Positions 52,784 to 64,000 of a stretch of DNA of 64,000 nucleotides are shown here, one piece after another. Every line of letters begins with the position of its first letter. The first letter of the stretch is position 1. The translations under genes and the position numbers were made by a program. The notes beneath the pieces are model-generated. The model had not been told where the DNA came from, did not search any database, and saw only the letters and a list, made by a program, of their open reading frames with translations. The DNA comes from Deferrisomatales bacterium (lineage in GTDB: Bacteria; Desulfobacterota; Deferrisomatia; Deferrisomatales; JACRMM01), in NCBI GenBank assembly GCA_033551855.1, contig JAWSUI010000001.1, positions 96,001 to 160,000 on the forward strand. Reading direction: 5' to 3'.

Positions 52784-53197
52784 TCAGCGCCGGCGACCGC
52801 CCACCTGGAGCTGGTTCATCGCCCGCTCCATCTTGGCTTCGGCCTCCAAATACTCCTTTGCCTCCCGGGAGTAGGTCTGCAGCTCCTTCTCGGCCTCGGC
52901 CTTCAATGCTTCGGCCGCTTGAATGTCAATCTCTGCGGGGAACTCGGCCTCCTCGGCCAGCACGGTCACCTTCGCGTGCTGGATCTCGGCGAAACCGCGG
53001 CGGACCGCGAGAAAGTGCTCCTCGGAGCCGATCCGGTACATCAGCTCCCCCACCCCGAGGGCGGTGAAGAACGGCGTGTGCCCGCTCAACACACCGAACT
53101 CCCCCTCGGCGCCCGGGGCGGTGATCTCGGAGACCTCGTCCGCCACGAGCTGCCGGTACGGGGTGACGACCTCCAGGCGAAACGTGTCCTTTGCCAT
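52784..53197 (-). CDS. atpC: ATP synthase epsilon
   Basis: LEVVTP, GEFGVLSGHTP. Confidence 0.95.
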   Translation of the reverse strand: MAKDTFRLEVVTPYRQLVADEVSEITAPGAEGEFGVLSGHTPFFTALGVGELMYRIGSEEHFLAVRRGFAEIQHAKVTVLAEEAEFPAEIDIQAAEALKAEAEKELQTYSREAKEYLEAEAKMERAMNQLQVGGRRR

Positions 53198-53213: not shown

Positions 53214-55623
<2,410 letters not shown>

Positions 55624-55639: not shown

Positions 55640-57151
<1,512 letters not shown>

Positions 57152-57158
57152 GGTGGTC

Positions 57159-57701
57159 TCACCCCTTGATCAGAGTTTCTCTCATGCGTTCGAGTTGGGT
57201 GCGCAGGCTGCCGTCGAAGACGAGGTTGCCCACGCGGGCCACCACCCCGCCCAGGAGGGACGGGTCGACGTGGAGCTCGAGCTCCACGTCCTTGCTCAAC
57301 GCCTTGGCAAGCGCTTGGCGCAAGGCCAACACCTGGTGGTCGTGCAGCGGCATCGGCGTGGCGGCTTGTCCGCGCACGCGGCCATCGGCCTCATCGCGCA
57401 TGGCGGAGAAGGCGCGGAGCACGTCACCGAGCTGAGGGAGCTGACGCGCCCCCAGGAGAACCCGGAGGAAGTTGGCGGCCAGCCGATCGAAGGACGCGGA
57501 CGCCAGGACGGCCTCGAGGACCTCGGCCTTGGCCGGGCGGGGCAGGATCGGGCTGAGGAGCGCCGTGCGGAGGTCCTCCTGGGAAGACAGGGCCTCCTGC
57601 ACGCTCGCCAGTTGGTCGGCCACCTCGGCCGTCTTGCCCGCCTCCTGGGCCAGCTCGAAGAGCGCCTTGGCGTAGCGCTGGGCGATTCGCGACCGGATCA
57701 A
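57159..57701 (-). CDS. atpH: ATP synthase delta
   Basis: [17 protein letters not shown]...[11 protein letters not shown] start overlapping the atpF stop. Confidence 0.93.
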
Positions 57702-58267
57702 TGGACCCTCCCGATGTTCTGGATGGTGAGCTCCACCGCCTTCTTCTGGTCTTCCGCCGTGTAGGCCTTGGCCAGGAGCTGCTCCGCCAACTGCACGGAG
57801 AGGGTGGCAACCTCGGTCCGGAGCTCGTCGGTCGCCCGCTTGAGCTCGTGGGCGGCAGCCGACTCCACCTGCCGTCGGATGGACTCGGCGGCCTTCTCGG
57901 CGTCGGCCACGAGGCGGCCGCGCTGGCGCTCCCCCTCGGCCTGGAAGTCTGCGTGAATGGTCCGAATCTCTGCCTGCAGGTCCGCGACGCGGGCCTTGTA
58001 CTCCTGGTAGCGGGCCTCGGCGGCATCCCGCGCCTGGAGGGCTTCCTCCAGCTCCTTCTTGATCGAGTCGCGACGCTGGGCCAGGGCCTGGGTTATGGGC
58101 TTGCGCAGGAAGTAGTACAGCAGGCCCAGGAGGATGCCGAAGTTGACGAACTTCATCGTCAGGTCGTACAGGGGTGGGCGGCCGGTTCCTTCGGCAGCGG
58201 CCCACAGGACGGCAGGGGCGAGGAGCGCCCCGAGGGTCAGGAGCAGTGTCAAGGCGCGACGGCCCAT
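57698..58267 (-). CDS. atpF: ATP synthase subunit b
   Basis: KFVNFGILLGLLYYFLRKPI followed by a coiled coil. Confidence 0.9.
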   Translation of the reverse strand: MGRRALTLLLTLGALLAPAVLWAAAEGTGRPPLYDLTMKFVNFGILLGLLYYFLRKPITQALAQRRDSIKKELEEALQARDAAEARYQEYKARVADLQAEIRTIHADFQAEGERQRGRLVADAEKAAESIRRQVESAAAHELKRATDELRTEVATLSVQLAEQLLAKAYTAEDQKKAVELTIQNIGRVH

Positions 58268-58692
58268 CAGACGGCCCTCCCGAGGATGCGTTGGGCGATG
58301 GATTCGGCGACCTGCCCGGCTTGGGCTCGGAGGGACCGCCGCGCCTCCTCTGCCTCGCCGCGCAAGCGGGCTCGGACCTGGGCCACGGCCTTGTCCGCCT
58401 CAGCGGTGGCCGCGGCCAGCAGACGGTCCCTCTCGGTCTCGCCCTGGCGGACGAGCTGGGTGCGGGACCGGTCGGCATCGGCCTTGGCAGCGTGAATGCG
58501 CTTCTGGTAATCGTCCCAGATGGCCTGGGCTTCGCTCTCGAGCTGTGCCGCCTTCGTCCGGCGCCCCTCGGTTCGCTCCCTCCGTTCCTCGAGGACCCGC
58601 AGCATGGGCCGGAAGAGGATGCGGTTCAGGAGGTACATGAGGAGCAGGAAGTTGACGAGCTGGACGACCAGGGTGGCATTGATGTTGATCAC
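58267..58692 (-). CDS. atpF2: ATP synthase subunit b'
   Basis: INATLVVQLVNFL...LFRP followed by a coiled coil. Confidence 0.9.
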   Translation of the reverse strand: MININATLVVQLVNFLLLMYLLNRILFRPMLRVLEERRERTEGRRTKAAQLESEAQAIWDDYQKRIHAAKADADRSRTQLVRQGETERDRLLAAATAEADKAVAQVRARLRGEAEEARRSLRAQAGQVAESIAQRILGRAV

Positions 58693-58794
58693 GGACCGAT
58701 CCTCCGTAACCCGGGGGCAGAGCGGCCGCGATCATACACGAACGCCTTGGGTGAATCAAACGGGATTCGGTGCTGCCGAGACGATTTTCCCGTG

Positions 58795-59049
58795 TCAGAC
58801 CACGAAGATCAGGAGCAGGGCAATCACGAGGGAGTAGATCCCCGTGGATTCGGACACGGCTTGCCCTACGAGCATCGTGCGGGTGAGCAGGTTGGCGTGC
58901 TCGGGGGCTCGGGCGATCCCTTCGCAGGCCTTGCCGGCCGCGAAGCCTTCGCCGATACCGGGGCCTATGGCGCCGAAGCCCATGGCGATGCCTGCGCCCA
59001 ACAGGGCGGCGGCGCGGATGACGTCGGGTCCGCTGATCTCTGGGGTCAT
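58795..59049 (-). CDS. atpE: ATP synthase subunit c, Na+-type signature (84 aa)
   Basis: GPGIGEG and QAVSESTGIY; RBS GGAGG. Confidence 0.95.
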   Translation of the reverse strand: MTPEISGPDVIRAAALLGAGIAMGFGAIGPGIGEGFAAGKACEGIARAPEHANLLTRTMLVGQAVSESTGIYSLVIALLLIFVV

Positions 59050-59077
59050 GGGATACCTCCGGCAGGAAGCAAGATGT

Positions 59078-60064
59078 TCAAACGACGTATAGAAGTAGAA
59101 GGGCGACGAGAAGCCCGTAGACGGCGGTGGACTGGCTGACGGCCTGGCCAACGAGCATGGTGCGCACCAGGACTGGCGAGAGGTCCGGGCGACGGCCGAT
59201 GGCACGGCAGGCGGCGGCGGCGGCCGAACCGGAACCGATCCCGGGGCCCGTGGCGGCGAGGCCGGCCGAGATCCCGGCACCGAGCAGGGCTGCAACCGCC
59301 GCCAGGCTGCCGGCGCCCGCATCTCCCGGGTGGGCGAAGACGAGCAGAAAAGCGACGAGCAGTCCGAAGATCGACGGCGTCTGGGCCACGGCCTGTCCCA
59401 TCAGCATAGCACGCAGCAGGGAGGCGTAGCCCGCCGGGCGGCGGGCTATGGCGTGGCAGGCGGCGGCGGCGGTCATCCCGGAGCCGAGGCCGGGCCCAAC
59501 GGCCGAGACGCCGGCCGAGATGGCTGCCGCCGCCAGGGCGGAAGCGGCGCTCGAGAGGGAGCCTGCCGCTTCGAGAGGGACGGCGAAGAGCAAGAGAAAG
59601 GCCATGACGAGGGCAAAGATGGCCGGGGTCTGGGCCACGGCTTGCCCCACGAGCATGGCGGTGGTGACGCGGCCCGCGGCCTGGGGGTGGCGGGCGATGC
59701 CCTTGCAGGCCGCAGCGCCGGCGAGGCCGGCCCCCAGGCCCGGGCCCAGTGCCCCGACGCCCATGCACAGGCCGGCGGCCCCCAGGGCGGCGGCTTGGAG
59801 GAGGCTGGGGACCGGCCGGGCGGTGAACAGGAGCAGCACCGCCACGACGAGGGCGAAGATGCTGGCGGACTCCGCCACGGCCTGGCCCACCAGCATGGTG
59901 CGCTGCACCCTGTGGGCGACGGCCGGCTGCCGCGCGATGGCCGCTGCCGCCGCTTCGGCGGTGCGGCCTTCGCCGATCGCGGCGCCGATGGCCCCCAGAC
60001 CGATGCACAGGCCGGCACCCAACACCGCCGCCGCCTGGGTCCACGCAGCAGGGTCCACGCTCAC
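59078..60064 (-). CDS. Quadruplicated subunit c (four fused hairpins, one Glu site)
   Basis: Four repeats of GxGxG...IAR.P...MLxGQAV; E65 in repeat 1, Q145/Q228/Q311 in repeats 2-4. Confidence 0.93.
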   Translation of the reverse strand: MSVDPAAWTQAAAVLGAGLCIGLGAIGAAIGEGRTAEAAAAAIARQPAVAHRVQRTMLVGQAVAESASIFALVVAVLLLFTARPVPSLLQAAALGAAGLCMGVGALGPGLGAGLAGAAACKGIARHPQAAGRVTTAMLVGQAVAQTPAIFALVMAFLLLFAVPLEAAGSLSSAASALAAAAISAGVSAVGPGLGSGMTAAAACHAIARRPAGYASLLRAMLMGQAVAQTPSIFGLLVAFLLVFAHPGDAGAGSLAAVAALLGAGISAGLAATGPGIGSGSAAAAACRAIGRRPDLSPVLVRTMLVGQAVSQSTAVYGLLVALLLLYVV

Positions 60065-60735
60065 TCCTGGAGGGCCACGGAAATGTATGTGAGGGTGAGC
60101 ATCGCGAAGACGAAGGCCTGCACGGTGCCCACGAAGAGGCCAAAGAACGCGCTGAGCAGGGGCGGGAAGATGAGGTGGTGGACGAGGTGGCTCACGACGA
60201 GGATGATGATCGAGCCCCCCATCACGTTCCCGTAGAGGCGAAAAGACATGGAGACGACCTTCGCCGCTTCACCAATCACGTTGAGAGGGAACATGAAGAA
60301 GAACGGCTGAAAGTACTCTTTGAGGTAGGCGCGCCAGCCCTTGGCCTTTACCGCCGCCGCTTGAGCTGTCAGGAAGGCGATTAGAGCCAGGATCAAGGTG
60401 GTGTTGAGGTCCTTTGTGGGTTCTTGCAGGAACGGGATCATCCCCAGCCAGTTGGAAATCAGGATGAAGATGAACAGGGTCAGGACCAACGGGTAGTAAC
60501 GGGGACCCCGTTTGCCGAGGGTTTCCCGGACCAGGTCCCGGAAGCCCCCGACCACGACTTCGGCCAAACTCTGGAGGGCCCCGGGCACCAGGGTGGGGCG
60601 GCGCGAGACCGCCATCCCGAGGGCGACGAGCACGGCCATGACGACCCAGGACATCAGGAGGGTGGTCGCGTTCAAGACGACGTCGCGACCGGCGAAGGGA
60701 AGAACCCAGTGGGGGATGTGGGTGATGGCTTCCAT
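60061..60735 (-). CDS. atpB: ATP synthase subunit a
   Basis: PTKDLNTT, PLNVIGE, SMSFRLYGN, VQAFVFAMLTLTY. Confidence 0.95.
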   Translation of the reverse strand: MEAITHIPHWVLPFAGRDVVLNATTLLMSWVVMAVLVALGMAVSRRPTLVPGALQSLAEVVVGGFRDLVRETLGKRGPRYYPLVLTLFIFILISNWLGMIPFLQEPTKDLNTTLILALIAFLTAQAAAVKAKGWRAYLKEYFQPFFFMFPLNVIGEAAKVVSMSFRLYGNVMGGSIIILVVSHLVHHLIFPPLLSAFFGLFVGTVQAFVFAMLTLTYISVALQE

Positions 60736-60757
60736 GGCCGGACCCTCGGAGGGAGGC

Positions 60758-61141
60758 TCAATCGCCCCCGCAGGGGCCCAGAAGGCTGCCCGCGAGGAGA
60801 ACGGCGGGCCCCGCGAAGAGGCCGAGTGCGGCGGACCCGAGGGAAACCCCGGGGAGGGCGTAAGCGGCTCCCAGGGCGCCGGCCCGCAGGCCGGTTCGCA
60901 GGAGCGACCCCAATCGGGCGCGCCGGCCGGCCAGGCGCGGGGGCGCCGTGACGTGGCGGGCGATCTGCGTTCCGAGCAGATGCACAGCCGCTGCGCTCGC
61001 GAGGCTCCCGAGCAAGAAGCCCTTGGCCTCCGGCGATCCACCGAGCAAGCCCAGCAGAGCGGCACCGCCCAGTCCGAGGAGCCCCGCCCCGGCAGCGGCT
61101 CCGAGACGAAACCGGCGGAAGACATCGACGGTGGAAGTCAC
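60758..61141 (-). CDS. atpI: ATP synthase accessory protein I (4-TM)
   Basis: Hydrophobic about 127-aa ORF between atpZ and atpB. Confidence 0.65.
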   Translation of the reverse strand: MTSTVDVFRRFRLGAAAGAGLLGLGGAALLGLLGGSPEAKGFLLGSLASAAAVHLLGTQIARHVTAPPRLAGRRARLGSLLRTGLRAGALGAAYALPGVSLGSAALGLFAGPAVLLAGSLLGPCGGD

Positions 61142-61410
61142 CGTTGCCTCCTCTCGGCCCGGCGCCCCGTCTCGGTGACGATCCGGTAGACAGCCCAGAA
61201 GCCGGAAAGGGCCCCCAGGGGAATGAAGAGGGCTTTCCAGAGCCCCCGGTGCCCGGTCCACTGGTCGAGGTAGTACCCCAAGGCAAAGCCGATGCCCACC
61301 GCGGCGACCATCGTCAGGCCCAAATGCGTGAGGAGGCCGAGGTGCTCCATGAGGTCCTTCATCTCCTTGGGATTGAAGTTCCTCTTGCGTGTCGGCTGGT
61401 TAGGTACCAT
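61138..61410 (-). CDS. atpZ: AtpZ/AtpI-like small membrane protein
   Basis: GIGFALGYYLDQWTG...LGALSGF; start uncertain. Confidence 0.8.
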   Translation of the reverse strand: MVPNQPTRKRNFNPKEMKDLMEHLGLLTHLGLTMVAAVGIGFALGYYLDQWTGHRGLWKALFIPLGALSGFWAVYRIVTETGRRAERRQR

Positions 61411-61754: not shown

Positions 61755-62612
61755 TCAGCGGCCGGATGCCTCGAGGAGGGACAGGAGGCGATCCAAGTCG
61801 TCCAGACTGCGGTAGTCGATGCGGATGCTGCCGGCCCCCTTCTTCTTGGCCGGCTGCACGGACACCCGGGTGCCCAGTCGGCGGCCGAGGCGGTCCTCGA
61901 GCGCTCGTACGTTGGGGTCCTTCGGCGGTGCGGGGGCAGGTCCCGCCGCAGGCCTTCGCGCGAGGGCCTCCGCCTCCCGCACGGACAGACCGCGGCGGAG
62001 GACCTGGCGGAGCAACTCGAGTCGGGCCGCGTCTCCGGTGACGGTGAGAAGGGCGCGGGCGTGGCCGGCGGAGAGGGTGCCGTCGCGCAGGGCCTGGAGC
62101 GCCTCCTCCGGCAGCCCCAGCAGCCGCAAGGCGTTTGCAACGGCGGCCCGGGACTTCCCGATTCGGGCGGCGAGGGCCTCCTGGGAGAGCCGGGCTCGGT
62201 CGAGAAGCAGTCGGTAAGCCTGGGCCTCCTCTACAGGATTGAGGTCCTCGCGCTGGAGGTTCTCCACCAAGGCCATTTCAAGGACTTCGTCTTCGTCGGC
62301 CTGGCGCACGATCGCAGGAACCTCGGTCAGCCCGGCGCGCTGGGCGGCTCGCCAGCGGCGCTCGCCCGCGATGAGCTCGTAGGCGCCGGACGCGGACCGT
62401 CGCAAGATCACGGGTTGGATGAGCCCCTTCTCGCGAATCGACTGCGCGAGCTCCTCGAGCGTCCCGTCCGGAAAGTGCTGGCGGGGTTGGTGGGGGCTCG
62501 GGTGAATCTCCTCCACGGGGCAGAGGAAGAACTCTCCTTCCAGGCGGTCGGGGAGCAGGGCGTCGAGCCCCGAGCCGAGGGCAGGGCGGGGGCGTTTCGC
62601 GGTCTGAGCCAT
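61755..62612 (-). CDS. parB: Chromosome partitioning protein ParB
   Basis: [31 protein letters not shown]. Confidence 0.96.
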
Positions 62613-62635
62613 GGGGGTCCTCTGGGGGCGCCGCC

Positions 62636-63421
62636 CTAAGCGGCGACGGGGGGCTGTGGGGCCGCCGGCCGGATCAGCTCCCTGGCCATGCGCAGGTAGC
62701 CCTGGGCCCCGCTGGAGCGGATGTCGTACAGGAGGGCCGGCTTCCCGTGGCTCGGCGACTCACTCAGGCGCACGTTGCGGGGGATGACCGAGCGGAAGAC
62801 CTTGTCCTTGAAGTGGCGCTTGACCTCGTCGGCCACTTGGTGGCTGAGGTTGTTTCGGGGATCGAACATGGTGAGCAGAATCCCCTCGATCTCCAGCCGG
62901 GGGTTGAAGCCGCGCTTGACCGTCCGGACCGTGTGGAGGAGCTGGGAGAGCCCCTCGAGGGCATAGTATTCGCACTGGAGGGGGATGATGACGGCGTCGG
63001 ATGCCACCAGGGCATTGATGGTGAGCAGACCAAGGCTCGGGGGGCAGTCCACCAGGATGTAATCGTACTCTTGTCGAACGGGCGCGAGGGCCTCCCGGAG
63101 ACGGAACTCCCTCCGATTCGCGGTGACGAGCTCGACCTCCGCCCCGGACAGGTCGCGGGAGGCCGGCACCAGGAACAAGTGGCCCAAGGCGGTGGAGCGG
63201 GTCGCGGAGGCTGCGGGAGCCTGCCCCGTCAGGACGTGGTAGGAGGTGAGCTCCCCGGGCCCTGCCCGCTGTCCCAGCCCGCTGGTCGCATTGGACTGGG
63301 GGTCCGCGTCGAAGAGGAGCACCCTCTTCTCCGCAGCGGCGAGGGACGCGGCGAGGTTCACGGCGGTGGTGGTCTTGCCGACGCCGCCCTTCTGGTTGGC
63401 CAACGAGAGAATGCGAGCCAT
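62636..63421 (-). CDS. parA: Chromosome partitioning ATPase ParA/Soj
   Basis: NQKGGVGKTTT, DPQSN, DCPPSLG, QCEYYALEG. Confidence 0.96.
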   Translation of the reverse strand: MARILSLANQKGGVGKTTTAVNLAASLAAAEKRVLLFDADPQSNATSGLGQRAGPGELTSYHVLTGQAPAASATRSTALGHLFLVPASRDLSGAEVELVTANRREFRLREALAPVRQEYDYILVDCPPSLGLLTINALVASDAVIIPLQCEYYALEGLSQLLHTVRTVKRGFNPRLEIEGILLTMFDPRNNLSHQVADEVKRHFKDKVFRSVIPRNVRLSESPSHGKPALLYDIRSSGAQGYLRMARELIRPAAPQPPVAA

Positions 63422-63556
63422 GGACACCTCCCAACGCGGGACGTTACCACAGGGCCGGCGAGGAGGGAACGGGCTTGCGCGAACCTGTGGCGGGCGGTCC
63501 CCACGGGGTTGTGCGGGGGGGGCGGGACGCGCGCAGGAACCCGGTTCGTGCCGCGG

Positions 63557-63572
63557 TGTTTCACGTGAAACA
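63557..63572. promoter_or_regulatory. parS site
   Basis: Perfect palindrome TGTTTCACGTGAAACA between rsmG and parA. Confidence 0.95.
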
Positions 63573-63585
63573 GCCCCGGGGGGGC

Positions 63586-64000
63586 TCAGTCGATCCTCCG
63601 ATATACTTGCAGTCGTCGGGGCCCGGCGCCGGGGGGGGGTGGGTACTCCAGATCCTCCACCGAGCTCCAGCCGATAGGCGGCTCCGCGGGGCCGGACCCC
63701 AGGAGCAGGAAGACGTCGCCCGAGGGAGCGAGGAAAGGGCGCGCGGACTTCAGCAGGGAGTGTGGGGCGGCCAAGGCCCTGGCGGTGACGGACGCAAAGC
63801 TCCCGGCCAGCTCGGGCTGTTCCCGAAGGGCTTCTTCGTGACGGGACTGCACCACACGGACCCGGCCGAGGCCCAGGACCCGGACCGCGTGGCGCAGGAA
63901 GCTCGCGCGCTTGCCCAGGGGCTCCAGGCAGACCACCACGGCGCCGGGCCACGCCAGAGCGATGGGGAGGGCCGGAAGGCCGGCGCCGCTGCCGATGTCC
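63586..64000 (-). CDS. rsmG: 16S rRNA m7G527 methyltransferase RsmG (5' end outside the window)
   Basis: DIGSGAGLP, E..GKRASFL, VTARAL; precedes parA. Confidence 0.9.
   Translation of the reverse strand, partial: DIGSGAGLPALPIALAWPGAVVVCLEPLGKRASFLRHAVRVLGLGRVRVVQSRHEEALREQPELAGSFASVTARALAAPHSLLKSARPFLAPSGDVFLLLGSGPAEPPIGWSSVEDLEYPPPPGAGPRRLQVYRRID

Follow-up and report, generated by a model that had tools for sequence, protein, structure and literature searches.

A fused four-hairpin c subunit with one predicted live and three blind ion sites, encoded in an F1Fo operon of a Deferrisomatales bacterium and conserved in a wide family

Results

A 64,000-nucleotide (nt) stretch of DNA from a Deferrisomatales bacterium (GenBank assembly GCA_033551855.1, contig JAWSUI010000001.1, positions 96,001 to 160,000; hereafter the window) carries on its minus strand a gene for a fused c subunit of F1Fo ATP synthase that consists of four hairpins (59078..60064; hereafter c4), next to a gene for a one-hairpin c of 84 amino acids (aa) (atpE, 58795..59049). 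Only the first hairpin of c4 retains the ion-binding carboxylates, and the other three have glutamine at the essential position; we call sites of the first kind live and those of the second kind dead or blind. This architecture belongs to a widespread, strongly conserved family in which the site residues of each hairpin vary with those of its neighbour. We consider it probable that c4 is a ring subunit giving one live and three blind positions to a hybrid ring like that of Acetobacterium woodii, with the blind positions forming a contiguous sector. That c4 is present in the ring, in how many copies per ring, that the ion is Na+ and in which direction the enzyme works are matters that we infer from the evidence presented below.

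Four diverged hairpins, one of them with its ion site

The Pfam profile PF00137 matched c4 in four stretches (E 1.5e-55, 185.7 bits against a cut-off of 24 bits), the number expected by a first-pass annotation of this DNA. It matched the 84-aa protein in one (E 1.7e-18), and a normal c gene does therefore adjoin the four-hairpin open reading frame (ORF), as had been stated. A hidden Markov model of the hairpin was built from the five hairpins of the window, i.e. the four of c4 and the 84-aa c. The latter, whose gene has GGAGG 6 nt upstream, contains the complete two-carboxylate Na+ motif (E34, E67, S68, T69 and Y72 in its own numbering), which corresponds to E/E/S/T/Y at positions 32, 65, 66, 67 and 70, and thus all five residues of the Na+ site. 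Hairpin 1 of c4 (59810..60061, residues 2-85) keeps E32 (in AIGEG), E65 (in AVAESASIF) and S66, but has A67 and F70. Hairpin 2 (59573..59818, residues 83-164) is dead, with A112, Q145, T146, P147 and F150, and so is hairpin 3 (59324..59572, residues 165-247), with S195, Q228, T229, P230 and F233. Hairpin 4 (59081..59323, residues 248-328) is dead on its carboxylate side (S278, Q311) but keeps S312, T313 and Y316. The first-pass annotation had named the two glutamates, the three glutamines and the A/S residues at the E32 position (A112, S195, S278), all of them correctly.

The second-helix carboxylate of subunit c is accordingly found in hairpin 1 (E65) only; although three of its four units lack this catalytic residue, c4 is a member of PF00137 by descent and fold. 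All four hairpins retain the polar R-x-P loop (ARQP, ARHP, ARRP and GRRP), the region through which subunit c touches the central stalk. Identity among the c4 hairpins and to the 84-aa c was 42-54%, and the repeats are thus diverged.

With regard to the start of the gene, the TGA of atpB overlaps the first GTG of the ORF (60064), from which 328 aa are read. The second GTG, at 60058, is the likelier start and would give 326 aa, since AGGAG lies 5 nt upstream of it, a database gene call (P0001) has 326 aa, and the resulting length of the N-terminus fits the relatives. The intact ORF as first annotated therefore stands, with its start probably to be moved to the second GTG.

A widespread family with a conserved pattern of live and dead sites

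Relatives of c4 proved to be numerous. In a collection of one genome per species, at least 603 stretches matched the pattern, and at least 431 of them were confirmed by tblastn to encode a relative. A word-indexed protein search gave 1,834 proteins at E <= 1e-3 among 8,000 scored candidates, the best 120 of which cluster at about 325, 404 and 485 aa, and a library of 1.84 billion representatives yielded 1,890 proteins at E <= 1e-3 and 98 at E <= 1e-30. The library representatives span about 160 to 1139 aa, and the range of three to six hairpins given below holds for the subset that was dissected; among the longer multi-hairpin representatives are P0126 (1139 aa), P0165 (968), P0210 (784) and P0213 (631). 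About 80 representatives of about 315-320 aa, with about 30% identity, make up a second, distant group of four-hairpin size.

From the pattern-matched stretches we kept 80 loci. The arrangement atpB-[multi-hairpin c]-atpE, for which the first-pass annotation had suggested searching genomes, was general among them: 78 of the 80 loci carry an ORF of three to six hairpins followed by a one-hairpin c, and the pairing with a one-hairpin c of Na+ type extends to all 78. The other two (L076 and L077) have a, c and a two-hairpin c. In these the order is reversed to a, one-hairpin c, two-hairpin c (L076:1185-1950, L077:524-1307), and both hairpins keep the full E/E/S/T/Y set.

Including that of the window, 79 fused proteins were dissected, four with three hairpins, 66 with four, eight with five and one with six. 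Among the four-hairpin proteins, 51 of 66 are live in hairpin 1 alone, while 13 have two live sites, one has three and one has none. The commonest pattern (positions 32/65/66/67/70 of each hairpin) was EESAF-SQTPF-GQTPF-NQSTY followed by a monomer with EESTY, and that of the window is EESAF-AQTPF-SQTPF-SQSTY, again followed by EESTY. Random decay of the E/Q/Q/Q pattern, which would have spoken against the first-pass annotation, is thus not what is seen, as judged by these 51 of 66 proteins and by low dN/dS values (ratios of nonsynonymous to synonymous substitution rates; see below). Conservation and pattern bear out, if indirectly, the reading of c4 as a rotor-type subunit that is conserved and has three of its four sites dead. 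The protein without a live site comes from a metagenome-assembled genome (MAG) labelled Nitrospirales (L085:5042-6019); its four hairpins lack any carboxylate (MGSPF CQSPF SQTPF CQGNF), and it lies beside a normal EESTY c and F1 genes.

Desulfobacterales account for 53 of the 80 loci. The remainder are from other Thermodesulfobacteriota, from 'Deltaproteobacteria' and from single MAGs labelled Bdellovibrionota, Nitrospirota, Planctomycetota and Coatesbacteria (labels as recorded, unchecked). Two loci belong to cultured type strains, Desulfatibacillum alkenivorans DSM 16219 and Desulfacinum infernum DSM 9756. The 84-aa c of the window is 71-90% identical to 42 counterparts, and c4 is 44-59% identical to fused proteins outside its closest kin.

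Site residues covary between neighbouring hairpins

In the Na+-binding ring of Fusobacterium nucleatum, Glu32 and Glu65 of one subunit form a site to which the adjacent subunit adds Ser66 and the carbonyl of Val63, and Tyr70 and Thr67 belong to the hydrogen-bond network of this site (PMC3692424). We therefore read positions 32, 65, 66, 67 and 70 in every hairpin of the 79 proteins, which contain 243 adjacent hairpin pairs, related sequences included. When the next hairpin had no Glu65, Tyr70 was absent in all of 226 pairs and Ser/Thr67 in 219 of them. When the next hairpin did have Glu65, Tyr70 was present in 15 of 17. The C-terminal hairpin has S-T-Y in 78 of the 79 proteins, the exception being the all-dead protein of L085, and Tyr70 occurs in no first hairpin. 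For 119 database proteins the same three counts were 476/476, 18/22 and 119/119. Variants with extra live sites (EQQE, EQEQ, EQEE, EQE and EQQQE) appear at about seven separate places on the subunit-a tree and hence do not descend from one inherited event. The rule at position 70 also holds for A. woodii c1, with AVAETSGIF in hairpin 1 and AVAQTTGIY in hairpin 2 as aligned with 4bem_J.

We read this covariation as evolutionary evidence that hairpin i contacts hairpin i+1 in the way ring neighbours do, and that the hairpin next in the ring after the end of the chain would have a live Glu pair. The idea that the fused c is not a rotor part at all, but an assembly scaffold, a template for ring size or a regulator occupying subunit a, meets a difficulty here, for the retained half-sites follow the logic of ring neighbours across the chain end, which would be needless outside a ring. 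The R-x-P loop kept in all four hairpins and the ring membership of the closest relative, A. woodii c1, also speak for a rotor part. The loss of three sites could admittedly mean loss of a transport role, and these operons also encode assembly factors of AtpI type; we nevertheless hold a non-rotor function to be very improbable.

Structural models and the closest known relative

An AlphaFold2 model of c4 built on a 54-sequence alignment (predicted local distance difference test, pLDDT, 95.3; predicted template modelling score 0.92) shows four helical hairpins made of eight helices. The first-pass annotation had pointed to c1 of A. woodii as the known counterpart, and this protein was indeed the best match in the PDB by both sequence (4bem_J, E 4e-27) and fold. 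Foldseek against the PDB placed 4bem_J first (E 1.4e-6, target template modelling (TM) score 0.80, root mean square deviation 1.7 over 157 columns), followed by V-type c chains; among the c-type PDB chains listed, none aligned with the model beyond about two hairpins.

In a model of the complex of c4 with the 84-aa c, the score was 0.68 against 0.00 for the best control. Of solved complexes, 116 of 157 attain this mark, as do 2 of 215 mismatched pairs. The runs agreed in at least 98% of contacts, and the pLDDT of the partner was at least 85. Hairpin 4 is where the 84-aa c docks in this model: the Glu pair of the 84-aa c (residues 34 and 67) lies in the interface, opposite residues 309-314 and 316-317 of c4. 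This docking has the same direction as that suggested by the covariation. Since 4BEM is a solved complex of like kind, this pass may reflect likeness only.

A proposed hybrid ring with a contiguous blind sector

In the ring that we propose, c4 would share a Na+-coupled F1Fo c-ring with copies of the 84-aa c and fill four hairpin positions, as A. woodii c1 does together with c2/3. Each ion site would be built from two neighbours, one hairpin contributing Glu32 and Glu65 and the preceding hairpin Ser66, Thr67 and Tyr70. The Glu pair of hairpin 1 would belong to a site shared with the preceding hairpin, whatever that is, and the Thr67 and Tyr70 that hairpin 1 lacks would come from there if the split-site reading holds. 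Hairpins 2-4, with Gln for Glu and A/S for Glu32, would make three consecutive sites unable to bind an ion, and the Ser-Thr-Tyr of hairpin 4 would complete the site of the following subunit. With hairpins 2-4 dead, the ring would carry three ions fewer than it has hairpins, and its blind positions would be contiguous. A Gln site would be permanently neutral; it would pass the Arg of subunit a and face the lipid without loading or unloading an ion and without producing torque. A ring of N hairpins with one fused copy would thus move N-3 ions per turn. By our own arithmetic, the arc between the live sites flanking the blind sector would be 4 x 360/N degrees, so that N = 11 gives 131 degrees and N = 15 gives 96. 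Such an arc is comparable with the 120-degree step of F1, and would be fine when ATP hydrolysis drives the rotor but demanding for synthesis. The ring of 11 hairpins with 8 sites and about 2.7 ions per ATP in the first-pass annotation is to be taken as an illustration.

Alternatively, the fused c might form rings by itself, apart from rings of the 84-aa c, for example as three copies with 12 hairpins, three sites and one ion per ATP. The S-T-Y of hairpin 4 could equally complete the Glu pair of hairpin 1 in another copy, and hairpin numbers of 3, 4 and 6 divide 12 (again our arithmetic). However, at the membrane potentials usually found, a single ion per ATP would be too little to drive synthesis, five-hairpin forms are common, and the all-dead protein of L085 could not work alone. 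Moreover, a one-hairpin c follows in all 78 loci and is far more conserved than the fused protein (71-90% as compared to 44-59% identity), and the solved A. woodii ring is reported to consist of one c1 and nine c2/3 (PMC9171764). A ring of fused subunits alone thus appears improbable to us.

Several points weigh against the hybrid ring as well. The covariation counts are not independent trials, given that related sequences are included, and there are exceptions to the rule, namely L069 and L084 among the 17 pairs in which a live hairpin follows and P0033, P0048, P0089 and P0098 among the database proteins. Na+ as the ion is suggested by the motif only. In a ring of about 11 hairpins the blind arc, about 131 degrees, would be larger than one 120-degree step of F1. 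Finally, in the single-chain c10 of Bacillus PS3, one E56Q exchange abolished ATP synthesis (Mitome 2004, cited in PMC8809890), which makes three adjacent Gln sites mechanically difficult for a synthase. The same construct resembles c4 in that covalently joined F-type hairpins assemble and work, and two slow sites in it were least harmful when adjacent (PMC8809890). It differs in being man-made and H+-coupled, whereas the three Gln sites of the present family are under purifying selection. In addition, the A. woodii enzyme with its one blind site synthesises ATP, as does an A-type enzyme with a V-type c (PMC9171764).

The fused gene is intact, and its family is constrained in all hairpins

A 4,847-nt Logan contig of run X1 spans positions 58500-60900 of the window without interruption; it has no gaps and differs in 3 letters. 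X1 is possibly the source sample of the window itself, and the agreement is therefore one between assemblers and not with a second sample. The letters differ at 59449 (C for T, by which codon 206 of the fused gene, ATA for Ile, would code for Val; it lies on the loop side of hairpin 3), at 60382 and at 60778. The proteins P0002, P0003 and P0006 are 75-80% identical to the fused c of the window.

The dN/dS ratio by the NG86 method lay between 0.016 and 0.165 in those of 108 pairs (80-99.5% identity) for which dS could be computed; dS was saturated in the others. Fifteen close pairs of other family members, the window gene not being among them, gave pooled values of 0.081 for first hairpins (1,229 codons), 0.057 for the internal, dead ones (2,546) and 0.061 for the last (1,200). 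The dead hairpins are thus as constrained as the live one, and the estimate of dN/dS proposed by the first-pass annotation points to strong purifying selection in every hairpin class (0.06-0.08 pooled).

That c4 is a decaying tandem duplication or an assembly artefact would be conceivable in view of its repeats in DNA of 75% GC, where long open frames arise easily. Yet dN/dS is 0.06-0.08 in every class, the gene is conserved over several phyla (by the taxon labels of the records), one gap-free Logan contig runs across it, and its hairpins are merely 42-54% identical, so that neither collapse nor expansion is expected in assembly. We find this explanation hardly credible, in agreement with the first-pass annotation, which had deemed an artefact unlikely. 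Pseudogene and artefact readings of the fused c were accordingly rejected on the grounds of purifying selection, conservation and the gap-free second assembly.

Relatives in the same order and the extra hairpin

The subunit-a tree places the window beside L019 (labelled Deferrisomatales) and L054 (labelled Thermodesulfobacteriota). A strong match (E <= 1e-18) was obtained in 16 of 20 genomes related at the level of genus, family or order, whereas with the window query the other four (G004, G008, G009 and G017) gave nothing beyond a single-hairpin match. One fused gene of the same genus was split over contig ends. Eleven complete fused genes were recovered from these genomes, nine with three hairpins (EESAF-AQTPF-AQSTY type) and two with four. 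In 13 loci from other families of the phylum there was a one-hairpin c only (13/13), with the residues QESLY in eight.

The hairpins of the three-hairpin forms have their orthologues, in order, in hairpins 1, 2 and 4 of the window, as judged by profile scores of 130, 115 and 117 bits and mean identities of 0.70, 0.63 and 0.64, respectively. On this sequence comparison, hairpin 3 is the added one relative to the three-hairpin forms. The number of hairpins would consequently shift by gain or loss of blind hairpins while the two ends stay fixed. As to the source of hairpin 3, profile scores (87.6 versus 81.6 bits) and mean identities (0.48 versus 0.48) did not permit a decision between hairpin 2 and the terminal hairpin; the hairpin tree places it with the terminal-hairpin clade, at a support of just 0.198. 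In the same tree the live C-terminal hairpin of L075, L079 (Desulfacinum) and L074 groups with monomeric c genes, which suggests that a monomer may have been fused onto the C-terminal end in these loci. The live last hairpin of L012, L035 and L017 groups with dead terminal hairpins.

The operon in the window

The window contains a complete F1Fo operon on its minus strand, with delta present, a canonical gene order and F-type genes throughout. Its first gene encodes a small membrane protein like atpZ/AtpI (61138..61410; PF09527, E 1.8e-13), a homologue of which takes the same position in most related loci. It is followed by atpB for subunit a (60061..60750; PF00119, E 1.2e-51), with the conserved Arg in MSFRLYGN, and then by c4 and atpE. 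Downstream lie atpF' for b' (58267..58692; PF00430, E 5.1e-19), atpF for b (57698..58267; PF00430, E 2.1e-20), atpH for delta (57159..57704; 181 aa, named from position and translation, and 56% identical to the gene at the delta position in genome G010), atpA for alpha (55640..57151; PF00006), atpG for gamma (54760..55623; 79% identical to its G010 counterpart), atpD for beta (53214..54626; PF00006) and atpC for epsilon (52784..53197; 137 aa, named from position and sequence appearance).

The fused gene thus occupies the place expected for an AtpE-type protein, between atpB and atpE/atpF of an F1Fo operon. The operon differs from that of an N-ATPase, which has the order atpD-atpC-atpQ-atpR-atpB-atpE-atpF-atpA-atpG with AtpR and without delta, and its F-type neighbours set it apart from V/A-type operons. 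Upstream, in the part of the window from 61755 to 64000, there are genes that by sequence appearance resemble parB (61755-62612), parA (ending at 62636) and rsmG (from 63586). An atp operon beside parA, parB and rsmG is the usual neighbourhood near the origin.

A second membrane module in the same genomes

The genome, 100% complete by markers and in 132 contigs, contains seven PF00137 matches, five in the window and one each on contigs C13 and C9. On C13 (10500-16600; loci L003, L120 and L122) lies an N-ATPase with beta, an AtpQ-like protein (PF09527), AtpR (PF12966, E 1.1e-28), a, a c with E/E/S/T/Y, b and alpha. On C9 (300-2082; locus L006) there are a weak AtpI match, a second subunit a that is 35% identical to that of the window, and a c with Q/E/S/L/Y. 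The frame of this c has about 60 extra N-terminal residues that resemble a signal peptide (MLKKLW...APAYAQD), as it also does in G005 and G010. The genome thus has three sets of a and c genes (window, C13 and C9), and alpha/beta pairs only in the window (F-type) and on C13. The other high-scoring PF00006 matches look like flagellar and Rho-type ATPases, judging by weak similarity and one FliJ-like neighbour.

The same situation was encountered in all eight further genomes examined, i.e. G005, G010 (a single contig) and G013 from the order of the window, and G041-G045, the genomes of L010, L035, L012, L079 and L018. Each has a second a + c(QESLY) locus apart from a single F-type alpha/beta pair; G042 has in addition an N-type pair and one pair taken as V/A-type. 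Moreover, in 47 of the 80 loci the fused-c module atpZ-a-c4-c-b'-b has no F1 gene among the same-strand matches, and most of these loci extend for over 5 kb past the start of b. In the window and a few other lineages the module runs on into delta-alpha-gamma-beta. Judged by gene content, one F1 seems to be accompanied by two alternative membrane modules. The first-pass annotation had proposed that the cell could change gear through the ratio of c4 to c. We found nothing to support this, and the genes for c4 and c lie side by side in the same operon. Switching between Fo modules seems likelier, given the second a + c(QESLY) locus and the single F-type alpha/beta pair in all nine genomes.

These findings allow an extension of the hybrid-ring reading, in which one F1 would be served by two interchangeable Fo motors. 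The module of a, c4 and c would be a Na+ motor of low stoichiometry, driven mainly by ATP, and that of a and c(QESLY) an ordinary synthase motor; gear, and perhaps ion, would be set by the choice of module and not by the c4:c ratio. The genome of the window, with its one F-type alpha/beta pair besides the C13 N-ATPase and the atpI-like, a and c(QESLY) genes on C9, agrees with such an arrangement, as do the eight other genomes and the 47 modules without an F1 gene, and a blind arc would be no obstacle when F1 supplies the torque. On the other hand, the c4 module of the window lies directly upstream of b', b and all F1 genes and looks like the main enzyme here, the C9 locus is 300 bases from the contig end, so that further genes are possibly absent from the assembly, QESLY could bind H+ or Na+, and the flagellar and Rho-type naming of the remaining PF00006 matches relies on the weak similarity and single neighbour mentioned above. 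We therefore regard two interchangeable motors as a possible arrangement, though one we would not yet bet on.

As for direction, the enzyme with the hybrid ring could synthesise ATP at a low cost in Na+, or it could pump Na+ in a high gear, building a steeper gradient and sharing F1 with the QESLY module. Since a blind arc of four hairpin steps would yield no torque of its own, geometry favours ATP-driven Na+ export.

Discussion

The A. woodii c1 subunit (4BEM chain J) is alike in its F-type affinity, in the position of its gene between atpB and a one-hairpin c of Na+ type, and in having Glu in its first hairpin and Gln later (Q....ET, then Q....QT; PMC7911925). It has, however, two hairpins and one blind site as compared to four hairpins and three adjacent blind sites in c4, and Gln at position 32 where c4 has the Glu of a two-carboxylate motif. 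It is found in acetogens of the Firmicutes, whereas c4 belongs to a series of three to six hairpins in Thermodesulfobacteriota and their neighbours, and in Desulfobacterales the fused c lies in a separate Fo operon with its own b'/b. The F. nucleatum c (3ZK1/3ZK2; match to 3zk1_A, E 1.3e-13) shares E32, E65, S66, T67 and Y70 with the 84-aa c and with the site that hairpin 1 would form with a neighbour (PMC3692424), but its ring is a homomeric c11 of one-hairpin subunits without fused or blind hairpins.

Multi-hairpin subunits with fewer sites than hairpins are also known among V/A-type proteolipids (Enterococcus hirae NtpK, eukaryotic c and archaeal c of 2, 3 and 13 hairpins), and the c4 model aligned with 2bl2_A and V-ATPase c chains at target TM scores of 0.77-0.83 over two hairpins. 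The sequence relation is nevertheless much weaker (6wlw_1, E 9.2e-6). V-type rings alternate blind and live hairpins, whereas the blind hairpins of c4 are contiguous, and the 13 hairpins of Methanopyrus kandleri, unlike those of c4, all keep their sites (PMC2359735).

The first-pass annotation knew of no four-hairpin, one-site F-type subunit. Likewise, the full-text literature as available to us, which did not extend to Brandt and Muller 2015 or Matthies et al. 2014, contained no description of a bacterial F-type c with three or more hairpins, and none was present in the available parts of PMC13343851, PMC13053071 and preprint 10.64898/2026.10.01.756066. One preprint filtered out c sequences longer than 250 aa (10.1101/2024.02.27.582367). 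To our knowledge, A. woodii has the only natural F-type ring with a blind position that has been studied, Clostridium aceticum being a second case at the level of sequence. What is new relative to A. woodii is the range of three to six hairpins, the runs of two to five blind sites and the two-carboxylate motif, together with the broad spread among sulfate reducers, the separate Fo operon and the neighbour rule. This rule provides a way to tell the live sites of fused c subunits from sequence only.

How many ions an ATP costs is set by the count of ion sites in the c-ring and is a fundamental quantity in the energetics of a cell; a fused c should alter the number of ions moved per ATP. In the present family nature offers a widespread, strongly conserved series of proteins in which two to five blind positions lie side by side, and some of the carriers are cultivable. 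It opens to test how a rotor crosses uncharged positions, how low the ion/ATP ratio of an F-type enzyme can go, and whether anaerobes living near the thermodynamic limit switch between two Fo modules. In its widest and most tentative form, which we judge rather doubtful at present, the picture would be that of a large group of anaerobes running one F1 on two exchangeable motors, one of them with a fused blind sector of two to five Gln hairpins whose length has been tuned by evolution and whose Na+/ATP ratio lies well below its hairpin number. If so, the family would represent a natural, stepwise F-type 'gearbox' comparable to the transition from F- to V-type enzymes, the blind sector may give the rotor a resting position without ion leak, and these organisms would offer a direct test of how a rotor passes over positions that carry no charge.

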